DNA of 63,610 nucleotides, counting the filler, from Ionaspis alba (taxonomy: Eukaryota): assembly GCA_964255285.1 (NCBI GenBank). It is 15 parts of 15 records of this genome, joined end to end, with 100 filler letters (N's around TTAATTAATTAA, not from the genome) between each part and the next. Parts side by side here need not be neighbours in the genome. Positions count along the whole stretch, not along the records: positions 1 to 4,224 come from CAXUUL010001126.1; 14 more parts are not named here. The stretch is one strand, 5' to 3'. The translations under genes and the position numbers were made by a program. How positions within the stretch are numbered: position 1 is the stretch's first letter; the number at the start of each line of letters is the position of its first letter. Shown here piece after piece: positions 1 to 40,691 of this stretch. The notes under the pieces were generated by a model. It ran no database searches. It saw nothing but the letters and a program-made list of their open reading frames with translations, and had not been told where the DNA came from.

Positions 1-756
1 TTGTTTATTACTACGAGGAAGGTCTTTTCATCCCCTCCGGACTAAATTATTTCCGAGTCATTTCATGGGGCGTTCACGCCCGTTTTTCCTCCTCCACAAC
101 ACCCTCAAGATTGTCCATCATTGATAATAAATAGTATTGGATCTTATACCTCGGCATATTCATCAGTCTGAACATCAGCAGGTAACAGGATGGCTCTTCC
201 GTCCACATATTGCTCGTTGCTGGCGTTCTCAGATCAACCAACTTGATTCTTGTTCTACTGGCACAGAATACAAGATTGGGGGATACTGAGGTTGGTAGAA
301 GAGAGAATGCCAACTAAATACTAGCGGGGAGTCCACTAATACACTCAGCCCGTTATTTGGGACCTTCTTGAGAGTCCTAGCCTAGGTGGAAGTGACAGGC
401 GGATTGCTTCGCCCGGTCGGCATAATAGACGAGTACAATCCCTTGAATGCACATACTGCAAAGCCTCGATGGTAACAGTTAACCTTGCATCGTGTAGCTT
501 TCATGTTCAAGGCAGTGTAACATGCATATGCAAATGACCTACCATCCATATCTGTGGGTTTGTGCTGAGTTGTGTACGGTAATTGGCACCACTCTATGCT
601 CTTAAAGCGCGACCCGTATTGAATGACATTTTTCCAAACCATTCAATACAAGTTGTCAGATCTACATTCACCGATTCTTCCACTCCTTCAAGCTGGCTCA
701 CATCTAGGATTGTTCCCAAGTCAAGGTTCAATTTCTCTTCAGTCATCCCTTCAGTC

Positions 757-1538
757 ATGGCTTTCACTATCGACTTCTGCAAAGATGAGGATTTCCCTGC
801 AATGGTCCCCATGATGTTTGCATCCATGGCTGAGCAAAGCCAATTTGTCAACGCTGTTTACCCTCACAACATGACCAAGGAAGGTCAAGAGAAACATTGT
901 CAAACTCTGCTTTTTGTGAAGAGCATAGACCCTTCTCAGAGATGGCTCAAGGCAACTGACAACGCCACTGGCGATATTGTGGGCGTGGCTCAATGGAATG
1001 TCTACGATGGACCTAAGCCTCCAGAGATCGAGCTTGATGGTCCCGATGGCATTTGGGACACACAAGATGATAAGGAATGGGCACAAGCTCTGTTTCGAGC
1101 GTTCATGGAATATCGCCGCAAGGTCATCAGAGAGGCTACTGGACCTGTTATGTGTATGTAGAGGAGCTTGGAATAAGATCATGGAGCTGAGATCTAATTT
1201 CTCTCGCAGGCCTCACTATCATGACTGTCGCTCCTCATTACCAGTATCGCGGAGTCGGCACTGCTCTTACGAAATGGGGTACAGAGCTTGCGGACAAGAT
1301 GGGCGCAGAGGTATGCTCCGAACATACAAGAAGTAAACAGTCCAGATAGAATACGCAGGCTAATAGAAACCTCACTCTCTAGTGTGTGGTCGAGTCGTCG
1401 CTCGCCGGGCGGCTTCTGTATGAGCAGCAGGGCTTCATCATGAAGCATCATTATGCTCTGGCTGTACCTGAGAAGTTTGCTGATAGAAAGAAGGAGCGAC
1501 TGTTCTTCATGCACAGGCCAAGAAAGACTCAGACATAA
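757..1538 (+). CDS. GNAT-family N-acetyltransferase (3 exons: 757-1153, 1210-1310, 1383-1538)
   Basis: The spliced translation contains IVGVAQW, acetyl-CoA motif A (VAPHYQYRGVGTAL) and ESSLAGRLLYEQQGF. Donors are GTATGT/GTATGC, with CTAAT branch points and YAG acceptors. Confidence 0.9.
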
Positions 1539-2675
1539 GTGCGTATGTTATCGTGGTCCTGCCACTGGATCGTAACAGGCTCACAAGAATCGTGTAGGGC
1601 TTGTTCGCCCCCAACACCTTAGGTAGACCTAGTGAAGACCTTCGGGTTACTTGACAGAAATTACCTCAACTTTTAGATGTATCGCACAGATGTTTTCCGG
1701 TCCATTCAGATACGTGTAGTTGCAGATAAATCAGTAGTATTCCTCACTAATTTGGCTTGCCTGACTTGCCTGACTTGCCTGAATCGTACGTCTCTCGCTG
1801 ACGGTACACTGACTGTGATGGGGGCAGTTGGAGAAGGCAAAAAGGGCCGAGAGCGCCCCATGTAAGCCAACAAACGGCCACTCCCGAGCATGCCTGCAGG
1901 TATGCGCTATGCCATGCAGGAGTTCCAGAAATGCAACCTTCACGGTAGCTTCCAGCTACTTCCTTCCCAAAGTGTAGTTGTTAGACGACGACATGTATGC
2001 ATCTTCCACAGAACCAAACGACTATCAACGTACTTGATCCGCACCATTGTCGAGCTATCTATGGAGTTTTACGGACTTAGGCGATACTGCTGTTGCCGCT
2101 ATGCACATGCACATCATTCCCAGGATTGGTACCAGGATTGGTGGTTCTCGAACATTACGATGGACGCCGCAAAGCTGTTGAGATTATGTGTAGCGCAACT
2201 TTACTGCTGGATAGGTTGTCTGTCAATGCAATAGGCTCTCGTGTTGCCTTCGTATATCGCTATCCAGTGACACAGCACGGGAGCACGCCTCGAAATGTCG
2301 TCCAAACCATCGAGCCGTTGTTCGACATGGGTTTGTGTTGCGCATCTCTTTTTCATGCTTTCTCCATTCAAGGCCCTGTTTTATCATTGCGCTTGGTTTC
2401 TAGCGGTGAGCACAAATGTGAAAAGTGCCTGCCGTTATGGCGTACCGATTCATCAAATTCAAAATGCGTTGTATTGACATGTTGAATATGCAATTTGCTG
2501 TCTTTAACGTATGTGTTCTCCCTGAATTCCAAATTCCAGCAGCAAAAGGCACAATTATGTCTCCCTCATCTCAAATTTCGCTATCAAAAACAGGAGTCTA
2601 TGCCAAAATGTGCCAATGCCAGTCCTACACTCCAGCACCTCATGTATTGTCATCTCGTCGGGACTGGGTCGCATC

Positions 2676-2877
2676 CTAGAAACAGTCGGGCACGGGGCGA
2701 AGATGACCCGCTGCATCAGGCTTTGTACAAACTTCCCCTCCGGCTACACTTTATCAGTATCACGGTTGGGAAGTTGGCTTCGAGTATTCCTGTAGGCTTA
2801 CATGGGAGTATTGGAATACCTGACACATAAGCGCTTAGGAGCGCACAGGTGGATAGGATGACTGCGAGGAAACGCAT
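2676..2877 (-). CDS. Small secreted 47-aa peptide MRFLAVILSTCALLSAYVSG-IPILPSGGEVCTKPDAAGHLRPVPDCF (exons 2877-2802 and 2743-2676); candidate RiPP precursor
   Basis: The ATG has A at -3 (CACGATG) and starts a typical signal peptide. A 58-nt intron GTAAGC...TACTGAT...TAG joins the exons in frame to a TAG stop. A TATATAG lies about 130 bp upstream. Not in the ORF track because it is short and spliced. Confidence 0.7.
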
Positions 2878-3575
2878 CGTGAGGGGTACAACCGTTTTGG
2901 TAGAAGTATTGAATCGACGATCGTGATGCTTGTAAGGCTAAGGATCTGGGGAGCTGGAGCCTGGTGTCGATGCTGTTCGACGGAAGCATGGGAAATTGGA
3001 GGCCCTATATAGTGCTCTTGAATGCTAACGGCCATATCTATAGTTCATGTGTGACAGTTATTTCTCTACCATTACTTGGTAGCCTCTGTCCGGCACTGCG
3101 TGCATGCAGATGGTGGACGCACCGCAGGCTCTCCCGGTCGCTGCACCGTCAAGGTCGCAGCACAGGAACAGAAGCATACACGACCATCAAAGATGTACTC
3201 GTAGTACCTCAGAACCAATGCCGACCTTGCCGAGTCTTGGTGCTGACGCTTCGAGAATATGGGAAGTGGATACTATCCTGAATACCACCTTCTTCTCTGG
3301 CTCCCAAGGCCGAGCAAATGCTGGAGATCTCCGCAGTTATTGAACGGCTTACGTGAGTTGTGTTGCTGGCTCCCATTTCGAGTTTCATACAGCTCCTATG
3401 CCATTTGTACACGATACCGAACTCTGCATTACCTGCGGACATCCTCGATATACGGCTCGTGGTGAAGTACTGCTAGCATACTCTCGGCATATTTCCAACC
3501 TCCGCTCTGACTTCGTTCTTGAAAGGGGACTATCCCTTCATTGGAGCAGCACGAAGACTCAACACTCACGAAAAC

Positions 3576-4224
3576 ATGAATCATGACAAGCAACCTCTCC
3601 TCATAGATCAATCACATAGGGACGACGATGAAAATGGTCTATTCTACTATCCGATACTCTCCTCTCCAACTCCCATGAGAGATACAAAGATATCAGAGAA
3701 TTCACAGCCTTTGATACTCTCATGGCTGGTCGTTGTCGCAGTGGTTATCACAGCATTCTGCTCCGGCGTTGCCACAGCCATGGCGTTCAATAACTGGTCT
3801 GGCCATCAATCTACAACTCCACCTTACTGTATGCCAGTCTCTTGCTAAGTTCACTACGAGATCGTCTAACAGTTTGATAGCACCCGCAAATGCCATGATT
3901 GAATATGAAAGACACGCATCTCACCTCAAACCTAACAACAGCCATCACAGCCCTTTCACCGGTAAACCAACTCTCGAGCATGATGAGGCCTGGGCCCAGC
4001 TGACAGAACGTGAGGCCTCCTTTCCACATATAAGAAGATTGCAAGCTAACAAGTCTTTCCAGCGGTGATGATCAGTGCATCCGAAGAGGAATTGCTGCTC
4101 AGCCAAGCAAACCCCGACACAGCAGTCCAAGTCATTGCAGGAGGCTACCTGGCCGCACTCGGCGTCTTCCACGAATTACACTGTCTAGTGAGACCTCCAG
4201 CTCCACATTCATTAGGAGCAAAAG
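3576..4224 (+). CDS. UstYa-like / DUF3328 oxidase, 3'-truncated at the contig end
   Basis: An N-terminal TM helix is followed by spliced YSPANAMIEY, FTGKPTLEHDEAWAQL and GGYLAALGVFHELHCL (first HxxHC motif), then a GTGAG donor at 4188. Confidence 0.92.
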
Positions 4225-4324
4225 NNNNNNNNNNNNNNNNNNNNNNNNNNNNNNNNNNNNNNNNNNNNTTAATTAATTAANNNNNNNNNNNNNNNNNNNN
4301 NNNNNNNNNNNNNNNNNNNNNNNN
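4225..4324. other. Artificial contig spacer N44-TTAATTAATTAA-N44. It recurs at 8545, 12861, 17167, 21465, 25735, 29989, 34236, 38471, 42688, 46886, 51073, 55259 and 59438.
   Basis: Identical 100-bp block with stop codons in all six frames. The intervening segments shrink monotonically from 4224 to 4073 bp. Confidence 0.99.
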
Positions 4325-28663: not shown

Positions 28664-28763
28664 NNNNNNNNNNNNNNNNNNNNNNNNNNNNNNNNNNNNN
28701 NNNNNNNNNNNNNNNNNNNNNNNNNNNNNNNNNNNNNNNNNNNNNNNNNNNNNNNNNNNNNNN
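28664..28763. other. Plain N100 scaffold gap inside a contig (a second one is at 37314-37413)
   Basis: 100 Ns without the TTAATTAATTAA core. Confidence 0.95.
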
Positions 28764-37128: not shown

Positions 37129-37413
37129 ATCCCGTCACGTCGTCCGAAAGTGACCATATGGAGAGACTTGGAAATTGCACAACTTGCTGCAAGGAGAGGG
37201 TGGGAAGAATGCGCAGTGGCAATCGCCACTTCTGTGGGGTGGTTAAAAGAAATATGTATGTGATGAAGCCGTTACAAATATTAATTATCTTGGTCACACA
37301 CCCTGGAGCTGCANNNNNNNNNNNNNNNNNNNNNNNNNNNNNNNNNNNNNNNNNNNNNNNNNNNNNNNNNNNNNNNNNNNNNNNNNNNNNNNNNNNNNNN
37401 NNNNNNNNNNNNN

Positions 37414-39470: not shown

Positions 39471-40691
39471 TCAAGCGAACGCAGGAGAGACCTGGGTTCT
39501 GTCAGCAAATTCATCTAGGTCAATGTACCAGAGACATCGAGACATACCTCAACAGTAGCTGGTCCCGCCAAAATAGTATCCTCATCCACAGTCACATTTC
39601 CCGCAACAAGGACAACATAGCTCAAGCCCTCCACACCCTCAGGTACCTGAACGGTATAGCCACTATCGACCACCACCACAGCCACGAATATCACTCCCGT
39701 ACGCGAAATGAAAGCGCCTGACATCTCCCCATCCGACCCTACAGTCATAGATGTAGAGTTCGAAGTCTCCAAGGTGATACTGCCACCAACCTCGATGGAG
39801 CCCTTGGTCCCGAGTGCTAAGTGAGGGTATTCTTTGATTGGTAGCTTAGGATTGCTTTCGGGGCATGCGACGATGTATTGGGCAGCCATGGCGTAGATAA
39901 TATCGACAGGAAGCGGAAGATCGAAGTCAGGAGACAATGGTGATGGAGTCGGTGGTGTGTCTTGATTCATAGCGGAACGGACAAAGGTTGAGAGCTTGTT
40001 TGAGGAGGCTCTTTTTGATTTCTTGGACGTGGTGGGCTCGGACTCGATCAATACTGATGTTGCAGCAATGTAGGCTGCATCACAGAGATCTAGATGTCCA
40101 TTAGCAGAGCAAGGGTTTTGACAAGTGGTAGAGGTAATAACAGTGTCATGTCGAATGTATACGTTGATGACATTGGAATGCCGTGACAAGCGTTGGGTAG
40201 GAAGGCTTTATGAAGAAAACGCCGAGTGTACGTACCCTCCATTGCCACTGCAACCTCAACGAACGCCTTGACATCTGTGGATGGAAACAGATACGTGCAC
40301 TCCTCCACTGGTTTCGCACCTTCCTCTTTAATCTCCTCTGCCATGGACTTGACAAGCTCAATCTTATCTTCAGAAGCTAATTTGAGCTGCGCGTGCATAG
40401 TGTCGGGAAGGCCAGAATTGTCGAAAATCTTATCGGTATAGTTCGCGAGACCTTCACGGTAGAGCTTGTCAAGAATATGCTCCAACGTCAACTCATAGTT
40501 CAAGACGTCGGCTACAGACCAGTCAGCAGCTGCTCCAGTAACATCGGCAGTGTGGAGCCAATCGAAAAGCTAGAAGGAAGAGAGAACTTGCCTTGCGTGA
40601 ACTTGGCCGTGTGCTTTGGAGCCGGGGGAGCCGTGGGTGCTGTTGAGCCGGCGATAATAAATGCAGCTAGAAGGGCAACGGAGTACTTCAT
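39471..40691 (-). CDS. Secreted Rds1-like ferritin-fold (Ferritin_2) protein, degenerate metal site
   Basis: Signal peptide, then DVLNYELTLEH..DKLYREGLANYT, PVEECTYLFPSTDVKAFV, FDLPL...AAQYIVACPESNP.LPIK.YP and SYVVL...DEDTILAGPATVEV. Three introns inferred. Confidence 0.82.

Follow-up and report, generated by a model that had tools for sequence, protein, structure and literature searches.

A single-core secreted-peptide gene divergent from a UstYa-family oxidase gene in Ionaspis alba: a candidate non-repeat RiPP precursor

Introduction

UstYa/DUF3328 enzymes cyclise or oxidise precursors in the secretory pathway. The dikaritins (ustiloxin, UstA with UstYa/UstYb; phomopsin, PhomA with PhomY; asperipin-2a, AprA with AprY; victorin, VicA with VicYb) combine Kex2-processed repeat precursors with such oxidases, and the mining of fungi for peptides that are ribosomally made and then post-translationally modified (RiPPs) currently seeks Kex2-flanked tandem repeats beside UstYa genes, a search that would miss single-core genes. 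Could a UstYa enzyme be served by a small precursor with one core? The question is raised by a contig (CAXUUL010001126.1) of the fungus Ionaspis alba (assembly GCA_964255285.1), on which a candidate gene for a 47-amino-acid secreted peptide lies head-to-head with a UstYa-family gene. We analysed it within a 63,610-base stretch of this genome (the window) that joins 15 small contigs; positions count along the window, and only 1-4224, the contig in question, is physically linked to the pair.

Our favoured answer, to which we give a probability of about 0.55 from sequence comparison, is that the mini-gene is real and is the non-repeat precursor (substrate) gene of the adjacent UstYa-family oxidase, the two forming a minimal RiPP-type module, perhaps together with a GNAT-type acetyltransferase gene. 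On the simplest reading, the mini-gene would be the positional counterpart of dikaritin-type precursor genes, and probably their evolutionary counterpart too.

Results

A candidate two-exon gene for a small secreted peptide

The divergent pair is laid out as follows.

2802..2877, minus strand: exon 1 of the peptide gene, 76 nt, ATG at 2877, 25 codons plus 1 nt
2744..2801, minus strand: phase-1 intron, 58 nt, with donor GTAAGC, a CTGAT branch-like site and acceptor TAG
2676..2743, minus strand: exon 2 of the peptide gene, 68 nt including the stop, single core, TAG at 2678-2676
2878..3575, no strand: divergent intergenic region, 698 bp
3576..3828, plus strand: UstYa/DUF3328 exon 1, ATG at 3576, encoding a charged N-terminal tail and one hydrophobic membrane-anchor segment
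3881..4009, plus strand: UstYa exon 2, matching Pfam PF11807 (E 5.7e-4, 20.2 bits, profile positions 52-90)
4063..4187, plus strand: UstYa exon 3, ending HELHC-L with the first HxxHC motif (4173-4187), matching PF11807 (E 1.2e-3, 19.2 bits)
4188..4224, plus strand: start of UstYa intron 3, donor GTGAGA, cut by the contig end

The original prediction, made from the DNA alone, had described a two-exon minus-strand gene (2877-2802 and 2743-2676) split by a 58-nt intron, and the sequence carries precisely this gene. The signal-peptide-like N-terminus, together with mature residues one to five, comes from exon 1. In the predicted spliced product of 47 amino acids, residues 1-20 resemble a signal peptide (MR, a hydrophobic core, then V-S-G), and the peptide passes our own heuristic filter, by which all signal-peptide calls reported here were made. 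The predicted mature part is 27 residues long and, as had been claimed, holds one core with no tandem repeat, no dibasic site (KR, RR or KK), no Tyr after the signal peptide and two Cys 14 residues apart (C-x14-C). Lys and Arg each precede Pro, Trp is likewise absent after the signal peptide, where one His and a C-terminal Phe are found, and the C-terminus reads Cys-Phe-stop.

From the ATG at 2877, 37 GT-AG models can be enumerated, among which the 58-nt intron alone has a consensus-like donor. Its branch-like site lies 12 nt before the acceptor, and its length is in keeping with those of the contig's four other introns, which measure 52-72 nt. The unspliced reading is also open, as a 53-amino-acid open reading frame (ORF) with a signal peptide and two Cys, so the sequence alone is no proof of splicing. 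A search with this ORF found no database relative, which is weak evidence, only 25 of its residues being common to the spliced product.

How readily would such a gene arise by chance? We filtered for a signal-peptide-like ATG ORF followed by a GTRNGY donor, a CTRAY branch site and a YAG acceptor, with a product of 35-80 amino acids. Both strands of the 63.6-kb window gave exactly one match, the candidate peptide gene. Among Markov-simulated windows, 0 of 60 held such a mini-gene under strict settings and 1 of 60 under loose ones; since the candidate was already known when the filter was devised, these figures err on the optimistic side and are supportive rather than decisive.

Three sequencing runs exist for this DNA, all from one study and represented by DNA contigs. 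One contig of run X1 spans 1395-4224, extends 377 nt past 4224 and differs from the window by 15 substitutions and 1 deletion. The two assemblies show 0 differences over 2595-3335, a stretch that includes the peptide gene and the greater part of the DNA between the two genes. Of the differences, eight substitutions and the deletion (1 nt) are crowded into 2496-2594, just downstream of the peptide stop. The difference-free stretch is weakly suggestive of constraint on 2595-3335.

The divergent neighbour belongs to the UstYa family

The prediction that the peptide gene diverges from a DUF3328 gene bearing HELHC on the same contig, with the two ATGs about 700 bp apart, agrees with the measured 699 bp. 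By its sequence the gene divergent from that of the peptide is a member of the UstYa/DUF3328 (PF11807) family, as had been proposed: PF11807 matches two of its exons, and exon 3 scores 65.5 bits (E 3e-18) against a hidden Markov model (HMM) of seven relatives, all of which themselves score 80-166 bits on PF11807. Exon 2 matches this custom HMM at positions 50-115. The PF11807 cut-off of 25 bits is set for the whole protein, and the two exon scores fall below it because each comes from a single exon. The membrane anchor, read by eye, is one hydrophobic stretch of about 25 residues after the charged tail. Exon 1 gave 123 candidates in a protein database, none at E <= 1, and no match in the 46 related loci described below. 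Exon 3 has 42 relatives in a database of 1.8 billion representatives; the top match is this very sequence with the intron read through, and those ranking next share 62-65% identity. What follows in the gene, any second HxxHC motif included, would lie past the end of the contig; an intron after the HxxHC exon is common to the relatives.

The 698-bp region between the two ATGs is presumably a shared promoter. An ORF within it (2913-3278) matched no Pfam family, nor did any of the four long ORFs scanned between the acetyltransferase and UstYa genes on the contig. No repeat precursor, nonribosomal peptide synthetase (NRPS) or polyketide synthase (PKS) was seen on the 4,224-bp contig.

Small signal-peptide genes recur beside related UstYa genes

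We scanned metagenomes with an alignment of exon 3 and its relatives and recovered 46 loci (446 kb; individual loci are given as L numbers). Their 49 HxxHC exons reduce to 30 unique UstYa genes at 90% nucleotide identity, 24 of them with at least 1,000 nt upstream. All are distant relatives, with 39-54% identity over the whole of exon 3. Upstream of 12 of the 24 genes, 570-3,120 nt from the HxxHC anchor, the divergent strand carries a strict signal-peptide-like ATG. This amounts to 12 matches in 54,105 nt, against 17 in 554,469 strand-nt elsewhere in the loci (1.66 expected; Poisson P 2e-7). With a looser filter and manual models, a small secreted-peptide gene was found beside 17 of the 24. 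The second gene of L026, which has a strict match and no evident product, was excluded from the 17, and the neighbour in L018 lies on the same strand rather than the divergent one. For seven of the 24 no neighbour was found (L016, L019, L024, both L026 genes, the second L022 gene and L037).

The usual design, whichever kind of peptide is encoded, starts with a signal-peptide exon (21-26 codons), continues with a phase-1 intron (46-69 nt) and closes with a core exon. The phase-1 intron starts 64-79 nt after the ATG in L001, L003, L007, L013, L022, L023, L027, L028, L030 and L046, and at nt 76 in the window gene. Eight related loci, each covered over up to 10 kb, gave 87 ORFs of at least 130 amino acids, none of which carried an NRPS or PKS domain. 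The pairing of a small signal-peptide gene with related UstYa genes is solid.

Five loci (L022, L026, L027, L034 and L042) hold two or three UstYa genes within 10 kb, as do the phomopsin and ustiloxin clusters.

Repeat and single-core neighbours accompany different enzymes

The neighbours are of two kinds. Evident repeat precursors lie beside 7 of the 24 genes (L009, L013, L017, L018, L027, L028 and L034), with 2-4 [IV]-[VA]-Y-P-D cores, some flanked by K-R; their presence at this position shows that the family keeps its substrate gene there. Single-core peptides of 43-58 amino acids lie beside another 10 (L001, L003, L006, L007, L015, L022, L023, L035, L042 and L046), and those of L001, L007 and L015 are free of both Tyr and KR, as is the window peptide.

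Two-exon precursors of the VYPD type, beside a well-supported UstYa clade, are located at L009 1714(-), L013 514(-), L017 7657(-), L018 244(+), L027 9012(-), L028 1077(-) and L030 3111(-). They come in two forms: L027, L028 and L030 have K-R sites and a longer repeat, and L009, L013, L017 and L018 have acidic spacers and no K-R.

Within the single-core set, shuffle tests gave p 0.001 for L042 against L046, 0.002 for L046 against L023 and 0.001 for L001 against L003. The window peptide gave p 0.004 against L015, with which it has a P-V-x-D-C-F-stop tail in common, and p 0.005 against L042, around the first Cys, both values uncorrected for nine comparisons. Among 16 divergent signal-peptide ATGs, 7 lead into a C-x12-18-C-x0-3-stop tail, compared with 658 of 9,787 control ATGs (6.7%). 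Two candidates were set aside: a C-x-CF-stop match upstream of the L026 UstYa gene was dropped as chance, there being no signal-peptide exon, and a second intron at GTAAG in L001 and L003 was rejected since it falls in a K-G-K conserved between both peptides.

Three of the single-core peptides are homologous with one another: L042 5978-5844(-), L046 5309-5090(-) and L023 8586-8371(-), of 44-57 amino acids. All three carry a Cys and a K-R site, their core is acidic and aromatic, and those of L042 and L046 end T-G-C-stop. UstYa genes flank them (L042 has two), and close by are a methyltransferase in L042 and FAD_binding_4 oxidases in both L042 and L046; this looks like an undescribed small RiPP cluster type. 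In two further loci a membrane-protein gene of the Fung_rhodopsin type (PF20684) adjoins the small peptide gene (L001 6904-8188(-); L003 7410-8284(-)).

We built an enzyme tree from the 86 columns covered by the window fragment, keeping 25 of 31 rows; L001, L019, L022, L026, L032 and L037, with fewer than 55 residues, were dropped. The repeat-associated enzymes form one clade (support 95/92) of 10 rows, comprising seven with repeat neighbours, two for which no neighbour was found and one without upstream data. The window enzyme is not part of this clade but of an 11-row group with poor resolution (53/77). Among its 10 companions there, all seven having upstream data have single-core neighbours; the nearest row to the window enzyme by path is L015. 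Kinship alone can cluster such labels, so the match between kind of neighbour and clade is an association, not proof of co-evolution. As a class-level pattern, the company of single-core neighbours with enzymes outside the repeat clade is suggestive. The window gene itself fits a provisional class of our own definition, whose gene models are putative: a signal-peptide exon, a phase-1 intron at nt 64-79 and a single core exon, the gene being divergent from that of a UstYa enzyme outside the repeat clade.

Likeness to known systems

As in the dikaritins, a PF11807 gene with an N-terminal anchor and HxxHC adjoins a candidate secretory precursor; as in asperipin-2a, the cluster is minimal. Like the VYPD-type repeat precursors beside related enzymes, the window gene consists of a signal-peptide exon, a phase-1 intron and a core exon. 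Unlike dikaritin precursors, its peptide has one core, no Kex2 (KR/RR) site, no Tyr and two Cys, and its enzyme stands outside the repeat-neighbour clade, a clade defined from metagenome relatives rather than characterised dikaritin enzymes. Set against Kex2-processed repeat precursors, the peptide has the signal peptide and the adjacent UstYa gene and lacks repeats, dibasic sites and Tyr; with three of five defining features absent, it is not to be filed as a Kex2-repeat precursor, although despite these absences it probably works like one.

Closer likenesses are found among the single-core pairs. Like the peptides of L042/L043, L046/L045 and L023, the window peptide is small, begins with a signal peptide and has a single core preceded by one Cys, with another at or next to the C-terminus, and is encoded divergently from a UstYa gene. 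Those peptides keep K-R and an aromatic pair, [FY]-Y, in the core, where the window peptide has K-P and no Tyr, and those pairs, unlike the window pair, are accompanied by a methyltransferase (L042) and a FAD_binding_4 oxidase (L042, L046). In lichens, clusters of clans R1 and R2 contain HxxHC UstY homologues with no repeat precursor in the cluster, according to the accessible part of the report, which suggests that the precursor lies elsewhere or is a 'single core peptide' (PMC12048977). No candidate peptide is named in that part; the window offers a concrete candidate gene, with related examples. Acalitide (AcaA/AcaB), as described in the available text, is likewise a ribosomal peptide of fungal origin that has one core, contains Cys and matures in the secretory pathway, but is cyclised head-to-tail by a protease and has four Cys and no UstYa enzyme (PMC10840396). 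Beyond the lichen suggestion (PMC12048977), the literature as available to us describes no single-core or Cys-pair UstYa partner, so one may be in print elsewhere; stand-alone precursors of relevance might be among those of Table S2 of PMC7329392.

The wider contig and window

Two further features frame the pair.

757..1538, plus strand: GNAT-type acetyltransferase gene in three exons (757-1153, 1210-1310 and 1383-1538), with weak Pfam GNAT matches in exon 2
4225..4324: artificial linker N44-TTAATTAATTAA-N44 between unrelated contigs

The GNAT and peptide genes converge. In L035/L036 a homologue of the GNAT gene (37% identity, E 2e-29) occurs in the window's order and orientation of GNAT, small gene and UstYa; the splice model of that small gene is weak. 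Possibly the GNAT gene belongs to the module as its third member.

The left end of the contig (1-290) is repeated DNA, with a summed contig depth of 637 against about 104 further in. At positions 6-99 several divergent contig versions and many loose ends converge, and there are insertions near 257-259.

The 15 contigs follow one another in descending size (4,224 down to 4,073 bp) and are not one locus; the same N44-TTAATTAATTAA-N44 linker stands between contigs, and neighbourhood across a linker is meaningless. Two extra plain N100 gaps lie at 28664-28763 and 37314-37413. We ran 40 of the 111 stop-to-stop ORFs of at least 110 amino acids in the window through Pfam. The other contigs gave ordinary fungal genes (Paf67, CN hydrolase, MFS transporter, copper amine oxidase, phenol-hydroxylase-type monooxygenase, ureidoglycolate lyase, VTC and SET). 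No second UstYa gene, NRPS or PKS was among the 40, and no other piece of the UstYa gene was found elsewhere in the window. The only other signal-peptide-like small ORF in the window, of 59 amino acids at 40691 (-), lies just upstream of, and on the same strand as, an ORF with a Ferritin_2 domain (40093-40569, -), and probably forms exon 1 of a gene for a secreted ferritin-like protein.

Discussion

Is the peptide, then, the substrate of its neighbour? The original prediction went beyond gene anatomy to propose a different, non-repetitive class of precursor. The recurrent divergent pairing, the single-core neighbours and the position of the enzyme in the tree strengthened this part of it; neither an orthologue of either gene nor a significant similarity of the peptide came to light. 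Published patterns are relevant here. In the available text of one survey, UstYa gene frequency peaks at the position next to precursor genes (PMC7329392), and two HxxHC motifs have been proposed, in the accessible part of another report, as the mark of RiPP-related UstYa members (PMC12048977); the window shows the first of them, HELHC.

Several observations weigh against the substrate reading. The peptide is without every sequence hallmark of known UstYa substrates (repeats, Kex2 sites and Tyr). An RNA run was sought for this DNA and none is on record, and the signal-peptide filter is a home-made heuristic. The enzyme is incomplete and may lack an intact active site, and the known context is 4.2 kb only. 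Searches of the 46 loci (446 kb) by tblastn with the peptide in spliced, mature and unspliced form gave a best E of 0.31, at an unrelated place. No orthologue of either gene was found. The peptide's similarities to L015 and L042 (p 0.004 and 0.005) barely survive correction for nine tests, and in the remaining seven p was 0.32-0.69. The two-Cys pattern was chosen post hoc and is in itself not rare, with C-x12-17-CF-stop at 7 unique places against about 3.3 in simulation; its positive in L027 is spurious, being out of frame with the evident product, and L003, the homologue of L001, has no second Cys. For L015 and L035 the gene models rely on weak donors (GTCACC and GTTCGA), and the best L015 donor leads to another frame. 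Many of the loci come from few metagenome series and are possibly paralogues of few organisms, and the tree draws on 86 columns and gives the window's group a support of merely 53/77. Finally, 31.8% of 9,399 DUF3328 genes lie near a repeat precursor and about two thirds do not, as stated in the available text of the survey (PMC7329392).

The leading rival accepts the mini-gene as real and its product as secreted, but not (or no longer) as a UstYa substrate: the peptide would be the relic of a decayed precursor, or an independent disulfide peptide (an effector, antimicrobial or signal) at the ancestral position. A core without Tyr, KR or repeat fits such a history, as does comparison with its most similar counterpart, L042, where K-R stands against the window's K-P and Y-Y against none, which resembles a loss of functional residues; acalitide, moreover, matures without UstYa, its disulfides being attributed to ER protein disulfide isomerase in the text available (PMC10840396; ER, endoplasmic reticulum). 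We nevertheless consider this unlikely. The ORF, splice signals and stop are all intact, the assemblies agree without a difference over 2595-3335 while changes crowd into 2496-2594 (weak evidence), other Tyr-free, KR-free single-core neighbours exist in L001, L007 and L015, and even among UstYa-linked repeat cores 34% have no Tyr, by the accessible account (PMC7329392).

Somewhat more doubtful still is the idea that no peptide is made, the mini-gene being an ORF that arose by chance in the intergenic DNA 5' of the UstYa gene. It was first spotted by eye, with the rarity filters built afterwards; it has 47 codons only, a branch site reading CTGAT rather than CTAAC, no RNA support and no significant homologue. 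Simulated windows nonetheless yielded such a mini-gene in 0 of 60 and 1 of 60 cases, and its position, strand, intron position and phase match those of the relatives' demonstrable precursor genes, which a chance ORF would have no reason to do. It would be quite improbable, in our judgement, that the UstYa enzyme acts on a Kex2-repeat precursor, or on an NRPS product as in cyclochlorotine, encoded off the 4.2-kb contig, with the peptide a bystander. In its favour, the contig is very short and passes on the left into repeated DNA (depth 637 against about 104; loose ends at 1-100). UstYa enzymes are reported to tailor NRPS products too, in the part of the report available (PMC12048977), and some related loci hold two or three UstYa genes per precursor. 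Against this, the relatives' precursor is the immediate divergent neighbour, and no NRPS or PKS domain occurs within up to 10 kb at eight related loci.

We therefore return to the favoured reading, that the peptide is a precursor matured by the adjacent oxidase. Around the gene anatomy, enzyme family and recurrent pair design described above, we infer a scheme of expression, splicing, secretion, disulfide formation and chemistry. Both genes would be transcribed from the common 698-bp intergenic region. The 47-residue pre-peptide would enter the ER and shed its signal peptide of about 20 residues, and in the 27-residue single core a possible Cys-Cys disulfide would close a 16-residue loop. The lumenal domain of the membrane-anchored UstYa enzyme would then oxidise the core, and the peptide would be secreted uncut by Kex2. 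In a core that has no Tyr, the reaction could not be the classical Tyr-O ether crosslink; candidates are hydroxylation, desaturation or halogenation, which are reported for the family, or a crosslink through Cys, His or the C-terminal Phe. The accessible literature describes the UstYa family as dicopper and O2-dependent (PMC12186524, citing Chiang et al. 2025) and credits its enzymes with hydroxylation, chlorination and transacylation as well (PMC12048977).

A wider proposal may be put forward tentatively, as something we hold possible but would not yet bet on. UstYa/DUF3328 enzymes may have a second, hitherto undescribed substrate class: unannotated, single-core, Kex2-independent mini-precursors of 40-60 amino acids, which often contain a Cys pair and end in Cys or Cys-Phe, encoded divergently beside a distinct enzyme clade. 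The Tyr-free members of such a class might receive a crosslink or oxidation new to the family, for example at Cys, His or the C-terminal Phe.

If small single-core genes were indeed the missing substrates, many 'orphan' UstYa genes would become interpretable, and a simple search rule would follow, by which the divergent strand is scanned 0.5-3 kb upstream of each UstYa gene for a signal-peptide exon with a phase-1 intron after it. Modified peptides that are short and probably constrained by disulfides would thereby be opened to discovery, and a Tyr-free substrate would probe further chemistry of the copper-dependent UstYa fold.

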